This document shows positions 1 to 56,528 of a stretch of 61,350 bases of DNA, piece by piece. The first letter of the stretch is position 1. Each line of letters starts with the position of its first letter. The stretch is from assembly GCA_037133435.1 (NCBI GenBank), contig JBAXOD010000005.1, forward strand, positions 1 through 61,350, read 5' to 3'. The DNA comes from Candidatus Moraniibacteriota bacterium. GTDB lineage: Bacteria; Patescibacteriota; Minisyncoccia; Moranbacterales; UBA1568. The translations under genes were made by a program, and so were the position numbers. The notes under the pieces were generated by a model, which made no database searches, was not told the origin of the DNA, and saw only the letters and a list, made by a program, of their open reading frames with translations.

Positions 1-178
1 GATGGTTAGAGATGAACCAGTGTACCCCGTTGCGTTAGAAGTTGGAAACCGCCTACAAAAACCCGCCATGCCCAGAGGGCCAGGACGGGTGGTTTTAGTA
101 CTTCGAATATCGCACATGAAATGCGCCCTGTCAATATTCTTAAAAACGCCGATGAGAACCCATTTCTGAAGCCGTTGC

Positions 179-208
179 GTCTGCCTTCGAAGGCCTTCGG
201 CGCGACAA
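179..208. repeat. 30-bp palindromic insert (CGCCGAAG...CGAAGG family) inside the wzt P-loop codons
   Basis: It encodes LVAPKAFEGR between GIIG and RNG. GTC occurs at both 179-181 and 209-211 (possible target duplication). It resembles the element at 50275-50302. Confidence 0.75.
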
Positions 209-241
209 GTCCGATGATGCCGAAAAATTCCCCTTTCTTCA

Positions 242-349
242 CCCGTCCGCAGCGATACGCCAAGCGTTTCGGGCGGGCCCGTCCGCAGCGATACGCCAAG
301 CATTTCGGGCAGGCCCGTCCGCAGCGATACGCCAAGCGTTTCGGGCGGG
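242..349. repeat. Three tandem 36-bp hairpin units inserted in-frame in wzt
   Basis: Units of CCCGTCCGCAGCGATACGCCAAGC(G/A)TTTCGGGC(G/A)GG lie at 242-277, 278-313 and 314-349. Each has 8-bp terminal inverted repeats. Confidence 0.95.
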
Positions 350-881
350 CCTCGAAGGAGACGTCGTCGAGCGCCTTGAATTCCTCGAACGTCCGTTTAC
401 CGTTCAAGGCCGACGTGAACGCACCCCGAATCGAAGACACCTTCTCGTGAAATATCCGGAAGGTCTTGGAGACGTTTTTAACGCTGATGGCGATATCTTT
501 GTCCATTGCTGTATTCTAGCCTATTTATAAGCAACTTTCTAGTATTGACAAAAAAGTCGGAATCGGTGAAAATTGGATATGACTTTCCGACTATCCTATT
601 TCTTTTCGGCACGAAGAAAATGGGGCCACTCCGGAAGGCTCGGGAGTGATTATCCTCATCTTCCGACGAACGCGGACACGATACCGCGTGATGTGCCGGC
701 CGTTTGGACCCCGATCGGGATAGGATCGCCAAGCGGTTCTACACGACAAAAAGGACCCTGCCTAGGCTTTGCCTTTGTGGGGGCCTTTTCTTTTATCCTT
801 CTGCAACGTACAATGAAATTGTAAAAGTTAGTCGAACACCGACCGTATGGCGGGTCGTCCGGATTTCCGGACTAGGCTATT

Positions 882-908
882 CCCCCTGAAAAGGGGGTTT
901 TGTTTTTT
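882..908 (+). terminator. Intrinsic terminator-like hairpin
   Basis: CCCCCT-GAAA-AGGGGG followed by a T-rich tract. Confidence 0.6.
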
Positions 909-940: not shown

Positions 941-1600
941 ATCTCCCTGCCTGTCTCCACGAGGCCCTGCGTGGCGGTCCATGCCGTTCCGTCTCCGCGA
1001 GGATTTTTGTCTTCGGAAATCCGTGGCGGTCCATGTCTTATCATCTCATTCTGGATTGCCACGCCTCGCCGACTCGTCTCGCACCCGCCTGCAACGATAG
1101 CATTTCGGGCAGGCCCGCCTGACAACACTTCGTTTAGCAGCGCGGGCTGGAAGACCGCGGAAGGGTCCGGGAACTGGATTGCCGCGGTCGCGGACTCCCT
1201 CGCAAAGACCGAGGGAACCCTCTCCCTGCCTGTCTCCGCGAGGATTTTTGTCTTCGAAAATCCGTGGCGGTCCATGTCTTATCATCTCATTCTGGATTGC
1301 CACGCCTCGCCGACTCGTCTCGCAAAGACCGAGGGAACTCTCTCTCTCACCGACCGTCTCCGTGAGGCCCTGCGTGGCGGTCCATCTCTTGACTGCTCCC
1401 CGTTCGTCTCCGCGAGGATGTACTCATCCGAGGCGGTCCAACCCCTGTCTGAATTTCCCTTGCCTGTCTCCGCGAGGATGTATTCATCCGTGGCGGTCCA
1501 GTGATTCCGTTCCCTGTTTTCTGTTCCATGTTATCTGTCATCTGTTCTTTCTGGATTGCCACGGTTGCATCCGCCAGCTGACGGATTCACAAAGTCAAAC
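941..1600. repeat. Mosaic palindromic repeat array downstream of the toxin-antitoxin pair
   Basis: Six copies of GTCTCCRYGAG-[variable core]-GWGGCGGTCCA at 953, 991, 1232, 1356, 1406 and 1466. Four copies of CTGGATTGCC...CAAAG at 1051, 1174, 1292 and 1551. Confidence 0.95.
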
Positions 1601-1623
1601 AAAGTAAAGCACGTAATCAGATT

Positions 1624-2280
1624 CTATGACGTTGTTTTGGCGGACACAAAATCGGTTACCAACCGTACAAAAAAACTTTCAATCTCCGTTTGCGCGATTT
1701 CTTCGTCGATCCAGTCCACTTCAAACACTCCGAGATCGGCAAAGTATACCAGCTGTTGCAAAAAAAGTTTTTCGTCGAAGTTTCCCCCGAATCGTCGCTT
1801 CGTTTCCGACAGCATGTCTTCGAACTTCAGACCGTTCTTGAGCAGAAAGAAAACATCCACGTAGTCCCGCCACACCCCCCTGCGACCGATCGCATATGCC
1901 TTGTTGGATCCCAGGTCCTGCAGATCGAAAAGTTTCATCGTTTCATCGCCGACACGATCATGCAGGGCGGGAAAGGGGAAATAAATGAAAGAAAGTTTGA
2001 TTTCATCGTCCAAAATCACGCTGAGCTCGTCTGCGGTATCGACGACCGGACGGACCTGATAGGCGGAAAAAAGACTATTGATCTTGTTCAACAGTTTTTT
2101 GGAAACGGGATCAGCCAGAAAAAAATCGAAATCATAAGACTTTCGATGCCGTAGCTGAAGCGCGATCGCCGTTCCTCCGCCCAAAACGAAATTCGGGAAG
2201 TTTTTTTCCAAAAGGGCGAAGACGACTTGCCTTTTTTCATCCAAGATTTCTTTGTGAAACTGTGAGATATCGTTGTTCAT
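1624..2280 (-). CDS. Nucleotidyltransferase, AbiEii/AbiGii-type toxin family
   Basis: FVLGGGTAIALQLRHRKSYDFDFF (GGTA plus DxD motif) and C-terminal KAYAIGRRGVWRDYVD. Confidence 0.9.
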   Translation of the reverse strand: MNNDISQFHKEILDEKRQVVFALLEKNFPNFVLGGGTAIALQLRHRKSYDFDFFLADPVSKKLLNKINSLFSAYQVRPVVDTADELSVILDDEIKLSFIYFPFPALHDRVGDETMKLFDLQDLGSNKAYAIGRRGVWRDYVDVFFLLKNGLKFEDMLSETKRRFGGNFDEKLFLQQLVYFADLGVFEVDWIDEEIAQTEIESFFVRLVTDFVSAKTTS

Positions 2281-2548
2281 CGATTTTATTCGTATCGCCC
2301 AGATTAAGAATGATCTTGACCACGAAATTCAAAGCCTCCGGAGAATATATTTTTTGCGGATGCCCGAGGAAAACACGTTCCAAAACCTCCGAAGCATAGT
2401 GACTCTTCAGCCACGCGATATCTTCCATCGAACCATACCGCAATACCTGGTTGATAATATATTCTTTGTCACGTTCAAAATCAAGAGTTCGTGCGTCTCT
2501 TGACCAAAGAATCCCCTGCATTTTCCTCTGTTTTTCCGCGTGTTCCAT
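2237..2548 (-). CDS. DUF6922-like small protein, putative antitoxin
   Basis: ILWSRDARTLDFERDKEYIINQVLRYGSMEDIAWL. It overlaps the toxin start. The ATG at 2548 lies 6 nt after an extended -10 (TGGTATACT). The longer listed ORF (to 3022) is read-through of repeats. Confidence 0.8.
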   Translation of the reverse strand: MEHAEKQRKMQGILWSRDARTLDFERDKEYIINQVLRYGSMEDIAWLKSHYASEVLERVFLGHPQKIYSPEALNFVVKIILNLGDTNKIDEQRYLTVSQRNLG

Positions 2549-2599
2549 ACTGCAAGTATACCATATCGGGTATAAAAAACAAGAGGAAAATAGAACTTG

Positions 2600-3200
2600 G
2601 GACGAGGTCGGTCCATCCCTTGACTGCTCCCCTGACTGTCTCCCTGCCTGTCTCCGCGAGGATGTACTCATCCGTGGCGGTCCATCCCCTGTCTGAATTT
2701 CTCTCGTTCGTCTCCGCGAGGCCCTGCGTGGCGGTCCATCTCCTGTCTGAATTTCCCTTGCCTGTCTCCGCGAGGATGTACCCATCCGTGGCGGTCCATG
2801 TCTTATCATCTCATTCTGGATTGCCACCCCGGCATACGCGGGGCAGGCTGGTCGTGGACTCCCTCGCACCCGCCTGCAACGCTGTGTAGCAATGCGGGCA
2901 GGCCCGCCTGACAACGATAGCATTTCGGGCAGGCCCGCCTGACAACACTCTTTGTGTAGCAATGCGGGCAGGCCCGCCTGCAACGATAGCATTTCGGGCA
3001 GGCCCGCCTGCAACGATAGCATTTCGGGCAGGCCCGCCTAACAACACTCTTTGTGTAGCAGCGCGGGCTGGAAGACCGAGGAAGGGTCCAGGAACTGGAT
3101 TGCCGCGGTCGCGGACTCCCTCGCAAAGACCGAAGAGGCCCTTCTCCTTTCCGCTTACCTCCCTGACTGTCTCCGCGAGGCCCTGCGTGGCGGTCCATCC
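2600..3200. repeat. Mosaic palindromic repeat array upstream of the toxin-antitoxin pair
   Basis: Four more GTCTCCGCGAG...GTGGCGGTCCA copies (2650, 2710, 2764, 3169), two CTGGATTGCC host repeats (2816, 3095) and a six-unit hairpin array at 2869-3071. Confidence 0.95.
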
Positions 3201-3258
3201 CCTGTCTGTTTCCTGCCCTTCGCAAAGGGCGGGGAAGAAAAGACCGAGAGATGCGGTT

Positions 3259-3696
3259 TTATGCCGATTTTGCTTTCCGCTTCGAATCCAAAAAAAGTTT
3301 GGCAAGGCTAACCGGAACAAACAGCACACTCATCGCAAGCGAAACCGATTCCTTGGTCGGACCCAGATTAAGAATATATCCGGCATGCTCCGGAGTAAGC
3401 ATGATAAGCACGACCGTGATTCCGAACCACACCAAAGCGAACCAAGCCCATCTACGAAACACATTATCACGAACGAAAAAGAGGAATGGAAAAACAACAA
3501 GAAGAGAAAAAGACAGAAACAATAATGGTTTGCCAATAGTTAGAGCACTTTTATCTAGACACCCACTATATGAATCAGTCCAATATATGTGATCACACAT
3601 ACCAAATATTTCTTGGTTCCTGAGAATGTATGAGACTCCCATGCCAATGCCGATAATTGCAAAAATCAAAATCCTCCACCAATATGTCTTTTTCAT
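3259..3696 (-). CDS. Small multi-pass membrane protein, paralog 3
   Basis: About four hydrophobic segments. Shares PFLFFVRD..F..W..F...WF and PTKESVS..MSVLF.PVSL with the two neighbours. Confidence 0.85.
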   Translation of the reverse strand: MKKTYWWRILIFAIIGIGMGVSYILRNQEIFGMCDHIYWTDSYSGCLDKSALTIGKPLLFLSFSLLVVFPFLFFVRDNVFRRWAWFALVWFGITVVLIMLTPEHAGYILNLGPTKESVSLAMSVLFVPVSLAKLFLDSKRKAKSA

Positions 3697-3770
3697 AACA
3701 ATTTCATCCTATCTGTTCTGATAAGGCTTTACTCTAGGCCATATATCACGAACATAATCCAACTATATTC

Positions 3771-4154
3771 CTATTCGACACTCCGCTTCGAGTCCCAGAG
3801 AAGCCAGACGAGACTGACAGGAAGAAAAAGAACACTCATCGTAAATGAGACCGACTCCTTTGTTGGGTTCATCATACTAAATATTCCGCCACCGTATTTC
3901 GGGGCAAGTGCAATAACGAATATCGTGAATCCAAACCAGATACCAGCGAATTGCATCCACTTAAGAAAAACCGTATCACGAACGAAGAAAAGAAATGGGG
4001 AAATAAATATAAGGGAAGCGGCAATAAATGCGAATGGTTTCGTATATGCATTATAGAAACCAAGATTATCAAAATTCACTGCAAGATACCAATATATCGC
4101 AACAATTAATCCGATACATATCACTCCCAGTCTCCACCAATATGTCTTTTTCAT
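3771..4154 (-). CDS. Small multi-pass membrane protein, paralog 2
   Basis: Same MKKTYWWR start as paralog 3. The upstream extension to 4202 is doubtful because its homologous copy before paralog 3 contains stop codons. Confidence 0.85.
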   Translation of the reverse strand: MKKTYWWRLGVICIGLIVAIYWYLAVNFDNLGFYNAYTKPFAFIAASLIFISPFLFFVRDTVFLKWMQFAGIWFGFTIFVIALAPKYGGGIFSMMNPTKESVSFTMSVLFLPVSLVWLLWDSKRSVE

Positions 4155-4230
4155 AACAACTTTAAATCCTATCTGTTCTGATAAGGCTTTGCTCTCGGCC
4201 ATATATCAAGAACATAACCCAACTATATTT

Positions 4231-4629
4231 CTATTCCACTTTCCGCTTCGAGTCCCAGAGAAGCCAGACGAGACTTACCGGAAGGAAAAGGGCACTCATC
4301 GTAAGTGAAATAGGTTTCTTCGTCATACCCAAAGCTAAAATATTGTTCGAATATTCCGGAGTAATCATAATAAATAGAATCGTAGACAGAAACCAAATAC
4401 CGGTAAATCTCAACCATTTAAGAAAAACTGCATCGCAAACGAAAAAGAGGAACGACGCGACGGACAAAAAAGCGAGTGATAAGTGAAATACGGTTCTCGT
4501 AAACAAGATACTATTTCCATAGAGACATTTTTGCACACTACCATCACAGGACCACAGATATGAAAAAATAACTATCGCTAATGCGAGAACTGTTAATATT
4601 ATCTTTTTCCAGTAGTTAGAAATCATCAT
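4231..4629 (-). CDS. Small multi-pass membrane protein, paralog 1
   Basis: The C-terminus MSALFLPVSLVWLLWDSKRKVE is nearly identical to that of paralog 2. Confidence 0.85.
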   Translation of the reverse strand: MMISNYWKKIILTVLALAIVIFSYLWSCDGSVQKCLYGNSILFTRTVFHLSLAFLSVASFLFFVCDAVFLKWLRFTGIWFLSTILFIMITPEYSNNILALGMTKKPISLTMSALFLPVSLVWLLWDSKRKVE

Positions 4630-13811: not shown

Positions 13812-13940
13812 GTCGCAGGTTCAGAGTCGTTCCCTGAACCATGCAGTTTACCGATTCATCGCAGGTTCAGAGTTGTACTCTGAACCACACAGTTTACCGT
13901 CGCAGGTTCAGATTTGTACTCTGAACCGTGCAGTTTACGA
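13812..13940. repeat. Three tandem REP-like hairpin units of about 41 bp
   Basis: TCGCAGGTTCAGA-N7-8-CTGAACC-N3-CAGTTTAC at 13813, 13859 and 13900. Confidence 0.9.
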
Positions 13941-17819: not shown

Positions 17820-17890
17820 TCGGGCTGTCGGGAATCGAACCCGACCTACGTGCACCCCATGCACGCGTACTGCCGATATACTACAGCCCG
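17820..17890 (-). tRNA. tRNA-Pro(GGG), CCA not encoded
   Basis: Acceptor stem CGGGCTG/CAGCCCG, anticodon arm CGTGC-ATGGGGT-GCACG and T-loop GGTTCGATTCC. Confidence 0.95.
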
Positions 17891-18181
17891 GAACTCAGAC
17901 AATTCTTAATTTTTGTAATTTTTGAATTTTGTAAACCCTCCACCTAAACACTCCGCCTTTCGCATCCTATCATCACCTTCACCTTCGTAACGCTCTCACT
18001 TTTTCCGGGCGAACCCGATCTACGTGCTCCAGGGCGTCTCTTTTTCCTCGGAGACCTCGGGGTGGAAACGCCCGCAAAACGTGAACCTTCACGTTTCGCC
18101 CCCATGCATGCGTACTGCCGATATACTACAGCCCGGAACTCAGACAATTCTTAATTTTTGTAATTTTTGAATTTTGTAAAC
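17855..18181. repeat. 82-bp direct repeat (17855-17936 and 18100-18181) covering the tRNA 5' half and its upstream sequence
   Basis: The two copies differ by one base and are offset by 245 bp. Confidence 0.95.
18006..18135 (-). pseudogene. Disrupted second copy of tRNA-Pro(GGG)
   Basis: The 5' half is intact. A 72-nt double-hairpin insert follows the anticodon loop. GCACGTAGATCGGGTTCG is then fused to CCCG, an 11-nt deletion in the T-arm and acceptor stem. Confidence 0.8.
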
Positions 18182-42846: not shown

Positions 42847-43147
42847 AATCATTTGAATCAATTCACTGCTCCGTTCCCTTTTCTTTCTTTTCGATCCCAA
42901 CCTGTTAACGCGTTAACCCGTTAACCAAGTAGCGTCCGTTTTATGGACTTTATGGACCCCGTAAAATCTCATTGACTCAATCACGGGGCATGCTTTACGG
43001 ACCCTACAGACCCCGAATCCCGTTGTCAGTTATGGGCAGTAAGTTGTGAGTTGTGAGTTGTGAGTTGTGAGTTGCCCGATCGTCCTTGCGAGCCGGTCCG
43101 ATCACTCTGCGAAGCGGAGATGTATCGGATAAGTTATCTGTCCTTTC

Positions 43148-47564: not shown

Positions 47565-48185
47565 TTATCGCCACAAAAGATACCCCACGCTCCCAATTAC
47601 CGACTTGAGCGCGAAAAGCGCGAGCAGGACCGCGAGGAATTTGTAGGTCGCGGAGACGAGATTCTTTTTTCGAAGCAGTTCGCGGAAGCGCGAAAAGATG
47701 AAACCGAAAGAAAGCATCGCAGCGAGCCAGCCGAGTTCGAAGACAAGCAGGAACAGGAATTTCCCGAGGGGAATAAGGGTATCGAGCGAGAACGCGCGCG
47801 GCACCGCGACCGTGATCCAAAAGATCCAGAATCCGCCGTTGAGTATCGTCAGGACGAAGATTTTCGCGAACGTGAAGACCTCTTTCGATTCCCCTTCGAC
47901 CGCGGATATCTTCCACACCTGGAGCGCGAGCCACACGAGCACCGCCGCGCCACTTAGCGAGATGACCTGGAACGCGTATTCCGGCAGGTTCAAAAACGAG
48001 AAGAAAAGCAAAACAAACAGCGCCACGATCGATTCCGCCGCGAGTGCGCGGAACACGACCGAAAGACTCTTCGAAAATCCGCTGCGAAGCGTTTCGGCGA
48101 AGACCGACGTCATGATCGGCCCCGGCACCGCTCCCCCGACCACCCCGAGGAGGAATATTTCGATGAGTGTATTGAGAGTTGTCAT
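47565..48185 (-). CDS. LysE family translocator
   Basis: GAVPGPIMTSV, LNGGFWIFW and six transmembrane segments. Confidence 0.85.
   Translation of the reverse strand: MTTLNTLIEIFLLGVVGGAVPGPIMTSVFAETLRSGFSKSLSVVFRALAAESIVALFVLLFFSFLNLPEYAFQVISLSGAAVLVWLALQVWKISAVEGESKEVFTFAKIFVLTILNGGFWIFWITVAVPRAFSLDTLIPLGKFLFLLVFELGWLAAMLSFGFIFSRFRELLRKKNLVSATYKFLAVLLALFALKSVIGSVGYLLWR

Positions 48186-52880: not shown

Positions 52881-56528
<3,648 letters not shown>

Follow-up and report, generated by a model that had tools for sequence, protein, structure and literature searches.

Introduction

The described systems closest to the repeats analysed here are the REP, BIME and REPIN elements of Enterobacteria and Pseudomonas, with their RAYT (Y1 HUH) enzymes; we use REP, BIME and MITE as defined in PMC3184786. 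REP-type elements are short, G+C-rich imperfect palindromes with many extragenic copies. They occur as two inverted unit types separated by a short fixed spacer (cf. the Y and Z units of E. coli), leaving one readable unit per strand, and they form tandem clusters and mosaics with other motifs. The hairpin formed by each unit is bulged or mismatched and has conserved bases at its flanks; the unit begins with a GTAG box, and its stem is conserved within a genome.

Other repeats offer partial parallels. Correia elements (CREE/NEMIS) of Neisseria and other MITEs have inverted ends, lack a coding gene, fold into long hairpins, carry outward −10-like boxes, and are dispersed and polymorphic between genomes. 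The BOX elements (A-Bn-C) of Streptococcus pneumoniae are modular and intergenic, with a variable number of tandem modules. Integron attC sites, which are thought to be recognized as folded single strands, combine conserved ends with a variable central hairpin and extrahelical bases.

Bacteria of the candidate phyla radiation (CPR) combine very small genomes with a presumed scarcity of mobile elements, which makes a rich intergenic mosaic of hairpin repeats unexpected there. Here we analyse such a mosaic in a Candidatus Moraniibacteriota contig (JBAXOD010000005.1); the window, meaning the whole stretch of DNA analysed, comprises 61,350 nt. Its units share the REP and BIME traits listed above except for the 5′ box, which is GTCT or GTCA, and the conserved part: arms and a 4-bp helix are conserved, the arms across very distant lineages, and the main stem is free. 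No RAYT was found in 331 kb. This design, invariant arms around a free stem, reverses that of classical REPs. The units are modular and intergenic like BOX elements and likewise vary in tandem module number (here An followed by B), but the sequences are unrelated, and no BOX module is a hairpin unit whose core can be exchanged. They also share the attC features named above.

A ten-copy repeat and its inverted partners

The window contains exactly 10 matches to the pattern GTCTCCRYGAG-N(5-25)-GWGGCGGTCCA, all on the + strand and spanning 953-3197 (Table 1); 100 dinucleotide-preserving shuffles contained none. Either arm alone is confined to this locus, save for a one-mismatch chance match at 55006. 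An additional covariance-model match at 47626-47657 lies inside a coding region and was dismissed as chance. The search thus reproduces all ten copies and the single orientation reported in the first-pass annotation, and the three core classes are as described there: GCCCTGC in 29-nt units (n = 4), GATGTAYYCATC-type in 35-nt units (n = 4) and GATTTTTGTCTTCGRAAATC-type in 43-nt units (n = 2).

The family comprises two types, and the ten copies all belong to type A. Type B has the form GTCTTTGCGAG-core-GNNGCAATCCA and is the reverse complement of the adjacent 'TGGATTGCCRC...CTCGCAAAGAC' repeat. Inverted sister units of this type lie at the same locus (B in Table 1); the first-pass annotation had not connected them to the A units.

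Table 1. Repeat units and associated features of the locus, with positions in the window
Feature	Position	Strand	Basis
A unit, 29 nt, core GCCCTGC, 5′ arm G7>A	953..981	+	pattern match, covariance model
A unit, 43 nt, core GATTTTTGTCTTCGGAAATC, 9-bp P2 including two G.U pairs	991..1033	+	pattern match, fold
B unit, inverted partner of A at 991, 18-nt spacer	1052..1083	-	read from sequence
B unit, 35 nt; + strand reads TGGATTGCCGC-GGTCGCGGACTCC-CTCGCAAAGAC	1175..1209	-	sequence comparison
A unit, 43 nt	1232..1274	+	pattern match, covariance model
B unit, 37 nt; - strand reads GTCTTTGCGAG-ACGAGTCGGCGAGGC-GTGGCAATCCA	1293..1329	-	covariance model
Three-A tandem array: 1356-1384 (29 nt), 1406-1440 (35 nt), 1466-1500 (35 nt)	1356..1500	+	pattern match
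Degenerate B unit closing the left array	1552..1596	-	read from sequence
Toxin-antitoxin pair: AbiEii nucleotidyltransferase toxin 1624-2280, DUF6922 protein ~2240-2551	1624..2551	-	
Orphan A-unit 3′ arm GAGGtCGGTCCA, then the usual spacer	2604..2615	+	read from sequence against 1374-1405
Three-A tandem array: 2650-2684 (35 nt), 2710-2738 (29 nt), 2764-2798 (35 nt)	2650..2798	+	pattern match
B unit, two-hairpin core CCCGGCATACGCGGGG + GTCGTGGACTCC, partner of A at 2764, 18-nt spacer	2817..2868	-	
Separate 30-nt tandem family CCCGCCTGCAACGATAGCATTTCGGGCAGG, interleaved with A/B units, higher-order periods 69 and 99 nt	2883..3068	+	
B unit, 35 nt, paralogue of 1175-1209	3096..3130	-	sequence comparison
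A unit, 29 nt	3169..3197	+	pattern match, covariance model

The units at 1232-1274 and 1293-1329 form a canonical A> <B doublet with an 18-nt spacer. The two A arrays are paralogous, with a period of 54-60 nt and 87% identity over 82 nt; in the left one the spacers measure 21 and 25 nt, and unit 1406-1440 has the 3′ arm GAGGCGGTCCA. Several units are altered. The G7>A change costs unit 953-981 one pair of its basal helix, P1. In both B units 1052-1083 and 2817-2868 the 5′ arm breaks off after CTCGCA and continues as cccgcc, in the former case cut by the 30-nt tandem-repeat family; the composite core of the latter is present in identical form in other MAGs. The degenerate B unit at 1552-1596 retains TGGATTGCCAC intact, and its opposite arm reads TTCACAAAGTC, not CTCGCAAAGAC. 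Further copies of the 30-nt family lie at 1084-1121 and, in a 36-nt version, at 242-351.

Between the two A arrays sits the AbiEii/DUF6922 pair, which is context and no member of the repeat family. The orphan 3′ arm at its upstream edge indicates a breakpoint inside a unit. Other genes near the arrays encode an LCAT-like protein, an ABC-ATPase-like ORF and a small membrane protein without a Pfam match.

Fold of the units and variation of the central stem

Each unit is a hairpin-forming imperfect palindrome of 29-57 nt with a core of 7-35 nt. Between a 5′ tail GUCU and a 3′ tail UCCA stands the 4-bp helix P1 (YYGC/GCRR), joined through a small internal loop to a variable hairpin P2; the minimum-free-energy fold consists of P1 plus P2 under RNA and DNA parameters alike. 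P1 is CCGC/GCGG in type A and UUGC/GCAA in type B; the CC/GG and TT/AA forms occur in a ratio of 54:31 with zero mixed cases, the two differences always co-varying. In the internal loop GA lies opposite G-N-R, best interpreted as one A.G pair and one G:N pair plus a bulged purine, and by inspection the loop fits neither a k-turn nor a sarcin-ricin loop. The 3′-arm positions opposite G9 vary among U, C and A, all able to pair with G.

This fold modifies the initial description of 11-bp arms around a swappable core. The arms are indeed constant, but the final G of the 5′ arm and the C preceding the 3′ arm belong to the central stem. Nor are the arms purely unpaired flanks, as CCGC of the 5′ arm pairs with GCGG of the 3′ arm. 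The view of the swappable core as a hairpin needs qualification for the 29-nt form, whose core is only a 2-bp/3-nt mini-hairpin and folds no better than shuffles.

The arms are fixed, and the sole requirement on P2 is that it be a hairpin. We counted 69 distinct cores (44 A-type, 25 B-type), many of which differ by compensatory changes, and identical cores occur within A arms and within B arms. Across the 69, folding exceeded that of shuffles with a mean z of −2.8. In 89 covariance-model hits, 95.6% of cells were paired and double changes occurred in 10 of 13 pairs, as high a level being reached in 0 of 500 shuffles; these covariation counts come from a model-fitted alignment and tend to favour the model. 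RNAalifold on the gappy model alignment returned only a shifted 4-bp helix of negligible energy and no independent support for P2. Because copies share descent, such family statistics are not independent samples. Comparison of orthologous copies gives 1 difference over 126 arm positions against 8 over 64 positions in the P2 stems, where one clean swap converts CCGCC/GGCGG to CCACC/GGTGG. Compensatory changes thus preserve the stems, which is the outcome of the covariation check proposed for the folded units.

Stems contain 20 G.T pairs versus 5 A.C pairs, and the more stable fold belongs to the forward strand in 44 cores and to its complement in 15 (p = 2e-4). Such strand asymmetry is expected of a single-stranded form and agrees with the early suggestion of extruded single-stranded DNA.

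Distribution of the arms

At least 10 Moranbacteria-like MAGs carry the same arms; RpoB of the window is 88% identical to that of a Moranbacteria MAG. Arms are identical between genomes with PolA identity of only 42%, and in both a doublet lies upstream of polA. GATTT..AAATC cores recur in at least 7 MAGs, and the GGATG/CATCC stem is also found in a B unit (locus L056). The proposed design of fixed arms around an exchangeable central stem is therefore present well beyond this locus, and the cores are not products of local decay.

Type A was found in Moranbacteria-like MAGs only, and a search of IMG/VR for phage carriage of A units gave 0 matches. Repeats of the form GTCATTGCGAG-core-GAAGCAATCCA, with B-like arms, are present in Alphaproteobacteria, in Helicobacter canis prophages and on many IMG/VR contigs. 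These have the same architecture and almost the same arms as the B unit, and two loci (L001 and L103) carry even GTCATTGCGA...GTGGCAATCCA. Like the Moranbacteria units they form inverted doublets, with spacers of about 5-30 nt, and their minimal form of 28 nt (11+6+11) parallels the 29-nt form of the window; their cores are mostly short (CGAAGC, GAGCGAAGCGAC). Unlike in Moranbacteria, a doublet here joins two units of one type and has no CC/GG partner. A literature search with sequence fragments, typical spurious peptides and keywords found no description of the Moranbacteria units or of the GTCATTGCGAG-type repeats.

Arrangement, neighbouring genes and signs of mobility

The dominant form of the family is a convergent doublet, A> <B, with a spacer of 12-21 nt; the window differs in its tandem A arrays flanking the AbiEii pair. 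Unit clusters all lie between ORFs, in an intergenic context that looks random (22 tandem, 7 divergent, 6 convergent), and A units show only a weak bias toward the C-rich (replication) strand (28 v 15, p = 0.07). They form mosaics with other repeat modules, such as the 30-nt tandem repeats of the window. This dispersed, extragenic, inverted-doublet and mosaic arrangement fits the REP-like logic proposed in the first-pass annotation. As read from the sequences, the sole recurring neighbour family in Moranbacteria loci is a protein of ~380 aa with a P-loop ATP-binding motif, the remaining neighbours being housekeeping genes; the recurring neighbours in viral contigs are mainly phage-structural-looking proteins, and several of the other recurring clusters there are of low complexity or without identity.

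In other MAGs, longer elements of 160-246 bp are bounded by the motif ATACCATTTC/GAAATGGTAT; of 20 occurrences near a unit, 19 are placed 16-26 nt outward of it. Many elements also have, 16-26 nt outward of units, an extended −10-like TGGTATNAT with GGGAAY 17 nt upstream of it. In length, in their inverted ends ATACCATTTC...GAAATGGTAT and in the further traits given above, these elements resemble Correia elements and other MITEs. They differ in that the conserved part is internal (the A/B units) rather than terminal; the terminal motif is absent from the window arrays and from many doublets. Moreover, the flanks of 10 bounded elements contain no direct repeat that would mark a target-site duplication, and among the sampled loci there was no parent insertion sequence with the same ends.

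Copies turn over between related genomes. Near-identical copies occur at unrelated loci (about 96% identity over about 150 nt between L055 and L023:4400, two loci of the same MAG with unrelated flanks); an orthologous site is filled by a doublet in L091 and empty in L066, where the alignment has a 106-nt gap; and between L055 and L076, whose flanks are about 90% identical, cores and spacer are entirely different. Together, these near-identical copies, the filled and empty site and the wholesale core replacement argue for mobility.

Searches for an enzyme and for known families

A scan for RAYT/Y1 (HUH/Y) motifs across 331 kb (the window plus 39 loci) returned none, and tblastn of the same 331 kb with E. 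coli RayT (query 100% identical to annotated rayT) gave nothing significant (best E-value 0.48). The neighbour genes suggested at the outset (HUH/RAYT, GIY-YIG, DUF559) were not found in this unit-bearing DNA. Alphaproteobacterial plasmids with the related repeat carry no RayT homologue. Genuine RAYT genes in Chloroflexota and cyanobacterial plasmids are flanked by REPs that start with GTAGG and are not A/B units; the A/B units lack a GTAG box and start with GTCT (types A and B) or GTCA.

At Rfam gathering thresholds, tRNA was the only match. Scans at E ≤ 10, which took in the window, one Moranbacteria doublet and one alphaproteobacterial doublet, yielded only sub-threshold, chance-level matches, mostly to miRNA-precursor models, and no ribozyme or bacterial repeat family; the Rfam ribozyme models (hammerhead, twister, pistol, hatchet, HDV-like) did not match the units. 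A CRISPR array was rejected because the spacers are themselves repeated; the repeats also differ in length, and no cas-like ORF lies nearby.

Competing explanations

The reading we favour, with confidence about evenly balanced, is that the A units are part of an A/B family of small non-autonomous REP/BIME/REPIN-like elements, MITE-like in their longer versions and probably read as single-stranded hairpins. Copying or movement would pass through a single-stranded intermediate, most likely DNA, with the arm structure of the strand reading GTCT...TCCA as recognition and cleavage site of a putative trans-acting enzyme. With A and B inverted, each DNA strand would carry a single readable unit, like the strands of a REP pair. 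The tandem A arrays of the window may have a local origin, through slippage or unequal recombination between 11-nt arms 54-60 nt apart, and the toxin-antitoxin pair may have landed in, or recombined into, a repeat hot spot. Transcribed hairpins probably affect mRNA too, as a secondary consequence. The points against a mobile element are that no candidate enzyme was found in 331 kb, that GTAG box and target-site duplication are lacking, that the strand bias of A units is weak, and that arm conservation is deep. Conservation of this depth (42% PolA identity, other phyla) would not be expected if the repeat were selfish and lineage-specific, and it hints at a function in the host. As for the first-pass interpretation as a whole, its swappable stem and REP-like logic are supported, and its attC reading and suggested neighbour genes are not.

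It is conceivable, if unlikely, that the units are instead a structured RNA motif, in which a conserved RNase or RNA-binding protein cuts or binds the conserved arm region with its P1 helix, bulged purine, A.G pair and GUC/CCA tails. The hairpins would then control mRNA stability, processing or termination, and host selection would keep the copies. Compensatory changes in P1 and P2, the preference for G.U pairs, the better folding of the forward strand, the pair-capable U, C and A opposite G9, and the conservation of unpaired nucleotides and of the position upstream of polA over deep divergence all favour such a motif. However, A and B always lie on opposite strands, so any transcript contains one unit forward and one reversed; orientation to flanking genes and intergenic type look random, divergent-gene sites included; and mobility is the better fit to the orthologous sites, of which one shows presence/absence and another wholesale replacement. 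No Rfam family, ribozymes included, appeared even at E ≤ 10. No U-tract follows the hairpins; of seven terminator-like scan hits, one (3189-3206) overlaps the 3′ arm of unit 3169-3197, and its tail has 5 T in 8 bases and no T run.

Rather improbable, in our judgement, is that the conserved arm structure is the cis-site of a novel cross-phylum enzyme system that acts on single-stranded DNA or RNA, copying the units and swapping central hairpins like cassettes. Such a system would span Alphaproteobacteria, Helicobacter prophages and CPR bacteria and would read a GUC tail, a 4-5-bp helix, a bulged purine with the A.G pair and a CCA tail; the CC/GG versus TT/AA asymmetry of Moranbacteria would mark the two ends.

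We give still less credence to the idea that a host protein (a nucleoid-associated protein, a regulator, or gyrase/topoisomerase as at E. coli BIMEs) recognizes the units as double-stranded or cruciform DNA, the doublet serving as an operator or insulator immediately upstream of promoters that face outward. BIMEs bind IHF, Pol I and gyrase (PMC3184786), the TGGTATNAT and GGGAAY motifs keep a fixed distance outward of the units in many elements, and doublets lie directly upstream of polA in distant lineages. Yet an inter-arm distance of 7 to 35 bp is ill-suited to a rigid double-strand site unless the core extrudes, and strand-asymmetric G.T pairs make no sense for duplex recognition. The outward promoter-like motif runs antisense into a gene 3′ end in several elements and is absent from the window arrays, and a sigma-70 consensus scan calls none of these sites.

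Cassette boundaries of the attC or Xer/dif kind, with the AbiEii pair as a captured cassette, are largely refuted and very improbable. They would account for the paralogous arrays flanking the pair and the orphan 3′ arm at its edge, the 11+7+11 layout of the 29-nt form is reminiscent of dif-type sites, and constant ends around a variable hairpin are the attC layout. But the units lack RYYYAAC...GTTRRRY (R''/R') boxes and attC-type R/L boxes in general, their outer tails GTCT and TCCA are unpaired, and only 4-5 bp of the arms pair. As a Xer/dif core site they fail equally: the arms agree at 5 of 11 positions in inverted alignment, with a centre of 7-35 nt. Most units stand singly among ordinary housekeeping genes and bound no cassettes, and the ORFs scanned beside the arrays include no integrase. 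AbiEii relatives occur in 18 metagenome loci without units, and we therefore also rejected the toxin-antitoxin pair as a unit-bounded mobile cassette.

Simple local duplication and decay of one ancestral repeat, with the cores as degraded versions, explains the copy number within the window, where arrays 1356-1500 and 2650-2798 are clearly local paralogues, but as a full explanation it is refuted, since conserved arms are present in at least 10 other genomes, and the cores, which other genomes also contain, are well-paired alternative hairpins and not decay intermediates.

Implications

The persistence of the arms at 42% PolA identity, and of their B-like form across phyla, means that they must be read by some conserved machinery, whose identification might uncover a new hairpin-specific transposase, recombinase or RNA-processing activity. 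A cross-phylum enzyme system, if real, would constitute a new class of hairpin-directed mobile elements, distinct from REP-RAYT, IS200/IS605 and integrons. For the genomes that carry them, the units generate spurious ORFs, likely break assemblies, and mark variable regions in which defence genes accumulate, such as the AbiEii pair of the window.

Ten A units and their chromosomal setting

The window, a piece of chromosome, includes rpoB/rpoC and further housekeeping genes; its RpoB shares 88% identity with the RpoB of a Candidatus Moranbacteria MAG. The A unit, in which fixed 11-bp arms enclose a variable core, has exactly ten exact matches there, all on the + strand between 953 and 3197, and none in 100 shuffles; either arm alone is restricted to the same locus. 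These counts reproduce the ten-copy pattern of the first-pass annotation, together with its three core classes. The repeat-rich intergenic stretches that hold the units (table) lie on either side of two - strand genes, one for an AbiEii toxin and one for a DUF6922 protein, and contain two more repeat families, 'CTGGATTGCCRC...CTCGCAAAGAC' and 30-36-nt tandem units. Counting the inverted sister type, the B unit, the locus reads A A B (truncated); B; A B; A A A B (degenerate); the AbiEii/DUF6922 toxin-antitoxin pair; the orphan 3' arm of an A unit followed by A A A B (truncated); the tandem repeats; a single B; a final A. The three-unit A arrays, one on each side of the gene pair, are paralogous. 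Because the orphan arm sits at the edge of the AbiEii/DUF6922 pair, it suggests a recombination or insertion breakpoint within a unit.

Elsewhere in the window, the gene at 6-506 may be disrupted or tolerant of insertions. The + strand region 545-905 may encode a small RNA; it has no Rfam match, the sensitive scan having spanned 850 onward.

Coordinates of features in the window (or in the sampled locus of another genome, L, where named)
Feature	Position	Strand	Observation
ORF	6-506	-	Looks like an ABC-transporter ATPase N-terminus on visual inspection; Pfam search negative at E<=0.01; palindromic insert near Walker A region
Three in-frame 36-nt tandem repeats of this ORF (CCCGTCCGCAGCGATACGCCAAGCGTTTCGGGCGGG)	242-351		Related to 30-nt intergenic repeats, 2883-3068
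Sigma-70-like promoter	545-573	+	Good match, TTGACA-17-GAAAAT
Two intrinsic-terminator-like hairpins after this promoter	771-797, 879-907		No convincing ORF between
Repeat-rich stretches holding the ten A units	507-1623, 2552-3258
Orphan A 3' arm GAGGtCGGTCCA with usual spacer	2604-2615		Exactly at upstream edge of AbiEii/DUF6922 pair
Three tandem paralogous genes, small membrane proteins (~130-145 aa)	3259-4629	-	No Pfam match for 3259-3696, the one scanned; homologue adjoins LCAT-like gene in L058
Repeated intergenic DNA among these genes	3706-3863, 4166-4323		87%
GTTGTSAGTTGTGAGTT-like short intergenic repeats	7918, 23564, 36442, 37490, 43022-43091		These and the next recur beside A/B doublets in other MAGs (L063, L079, L083, L082)
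AACCCGTTAACYCGTGAAC-like short intergenic repeats	8119, 33518, 36388, 42899
Three tandem 41-nt units (GGTTCAGAG...CTCTGAACC)	13813-13940		One hairpin each
Duplicated 5' part of tRNA-Pro(GGG) with upstream DNA, 82 nt	17855-17936, 18100-18181		245 nt apart, 99% identity
Third palindromic module GTCACCGTCGTTCGCGAACGACGTGAC	L033 860-960; L063 6785-6812; L076 spacer; L007 after 6754		Inserted in some doublet spacers
Fourth palindromic module CCCCGGCATGCGCGGGG, positions listed together with those of the third			Within unit cores, also standalone
GTCATTGCGAG...GCAATCCA repeat	L249 15003-15076; L250 2503-2530; IMG/VR loci L142-L246		Unannotated; flanked by phage structural genes in many viral contigs

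Two unit types share one fold

A relaxed search also caught a 'TGGATTGCC...' repeat on the opposite strand, which on its own strand reads GTCTTTGCGAG-core-G(T/C/A)(G/A)GCAATCCA and constitutes the B type. It shares the architecture of the A unit and differs at two positions per arm. In a search that permitted mixtures, these differences co-varied without exception, CC with GG in A (n = 54) and TT with AA in B (n = 31), which defines a 4-bp helix, P1 (YYGC/GCRR). Single-sequence folds, with RNA and DNA parameters alike, give a tail, P1, a small internal loop, the core hairpin P2 and a second tail. The variable 3'-arm positions (U/C/A opposite G9, then a purine) would form a G:N pair and one bulged purine beside an A.G pair. 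Most of the distinct cores (44 A and 25 B) form clean hairpins, and they fold better than shuffles (mean z -2.8; z < -2 in 42 of 69).

A covariance model built on fifteen 43-nt units returned 89 matches, of which ~84 were judged true units. In the alignment of these matches, which was fitted to the model itself, 95.6% of cells are paired and 10 of 13 pairs show both-sided changes, values that neither shuffles nor slid registers approach; RNAalifold by itself found no more than a displaced 4-bp helix of negligible energy. The per-sequence folds and orthologous copies are therefore the stronger support for the structure. Between L001 and L103, loci whose PolA proteins are 84% identical, the arms are the same, the B stem has changed from CCGCC/GGCGG to CCACC/GGTGG, and loops and spacer vary freely. 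Six orthologous pairs differ at 1 of 126 arm positions and 8 of 64 P2 stem positions.

P2 stems on the GTCT...TCCA strand contain 20 G.T pairs versus 5 A.C pairs, and this strand is stabler than its complement in 44 cores and less stable in 15 (p = 2e-4). Together, the G.T excess and the stability difference indicate that the predicted folded form is single-stranded and strand-specific. RNA and single-stranded DNA fit equally well, and the strand bias of A units is weak (28 versus 15) and leaves the two undecided.

Doublets, longer elements and turnover

Units usually occur as a convergent doublet, A> 12-21 nt <B, and the palindromic symmetry frequently continues for some bases into the spacer. 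Outside the window, many elements also carry an outward-facing GAAATGGTAT motif 16-26 nt beyond each unit. This motif is shaped like an extended -10 box, and GGGAAY precedes it by 17 nt; near units it points outward in 19 of 20 copies, and exact copies are nearly absent elsewhere. Complete elements bounded by it measure 160-246 bp, and no target duplication was seen at them. Since several copies point antisense into a gene end, we take the motif to belong to a longer, MITE-like form of the element and not to be a gene's own promoter; a sigma-70 consensus scan made no call at these sites. The window differs from the usual element in having tandem A runs and no GAAATGGTAT motif.

Placement looks unselective, with elements in tandem (22), divergent (7) and convergent (6) intergenic regions, and the only gene families that recur beside them are housekeeping genes and one that encodes a ~380-aa protein carrying an ATP-binding P-loop motif. 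Copies at L055 and L023:4400, in one MAG, are ~96% identical over ~150 nt between unrelated flanks; L091 has a doublet in an orthologous intergenic region in which L066 has a gap of 106 nt; and flanks ~90% identical between L055 and L076 enclose wholly different doublet cores and spacer. These three comparisons indicate turnover. Identical cores occur with both A and B arms: the GGATG/CATCC stem of window A units recurs in one L056 B unit, and a two-hairpin core ending CCCCGCGCATGCCGGG is found in both types. Core replacement and this sharing therefore make the cores interchangeable, as first suggested, on an evolutionary scale.

Distribution in Moranbacteria and relatives in other phyla

Scanning one genome per species placed the A pattern, arms with a free centre, at no fewer than 39 loci in at least 10 MAGs, with 7 Moranbacteria/Moraniibacteriota and 3 'uncultured bacterium' labels among the matches listed. 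The listed matches also include single ones in high-G+C genomes, e.g. Streptomyces and Haloferax, most of which look like chance, although cores that are identical or near-identical across several Haloferax and several Streptomyces genomes indicate conserved orthologous DNA in those groups.

A B> <A doublet lies just upstream of polA in both L001 and L033, loci whose PolA proteins are only 42% identical; the A-type arms are identical and the B 5' arm differs (GTCATTGCGAT versus GTCTTTGCGAG). Searched with a looser B-type pattern, IMG/VR contigs yielded a widespread relative, GTCATTGCGAG-core-G(A/C/T)(A/G)GCAATCCA, with GTCA as the four unspecified upstream bases in 72 matches and many matches arranged as inverted doublets. 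Megaplasmids of the Alphaproteobacteria Novosphingobium, Methylosinus and Methylobacterium carry it too, as do Helicobacter canis prophages, in all cases without annotation. Its shortest form, 28 nt (11+6+11), is a parallel to the 29-nt A unit of the window. Among the matches listed, the A type belongs to Moranbacteria-like MAGs only, and the IMG/VR search found none in viral contigs.

Nature of the A/B family

A CRISPR array is ruled out because the spacers are themselves repeated, and no Rfam family matched at any threshold tried. The attC reading of the first-pass annotation fails, as does a dif site: the expected boxes are absent, pairing between the arms is limited to 4-5 bp, the centre measures 7-35 nt, the ORFs scanned beside the arrays include no integrase, and genes related to AbiEii at other loci carry no units.

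The proposed REP-like logic survives in part. Classical REP-RAYT membership is rejected, the 5' box being GTCT/GTCA; genuine RAYT genes that we inspected are flanked, in contrast, by GTAG-type REPs, and the 331 kb sampled (window and 39 loci) contain no RayT homologue. The A/B family is structured, two-typed, doublet-forming, dispersed and subject to turnover; the evidence best supports a REP/BIME/REPIN-type repeat that is non-autonomous and has longer, MITE-like forms, by the definitions of PMC3184786. The arm structure on a folded single strand would be the site read by a putative enzyme, and the inverted A/B layout would present one readable unit per DNA strand. Local slippage or unequal exchange may have produced the window's tandem A arrays, and the toxin-antitoxin pair may have entered a repeat hot spot.

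An RNA or host function of the units is kept alive by arms that are conserved very deeply, by their conserved location upstream of polA and by the failure to find an enzyme. It is a minority possibility that the family marks unrecognised hairpin-directed machinery. No description of A/B elements was found in Rfam or the searchable literature. As a REP/BIME/REPIN-kind repeat, the element is of a known kind; its design is new: the stem varies freely between fixed arms, there is an A/B asymmetry, and B-like arms are shared across phyla.
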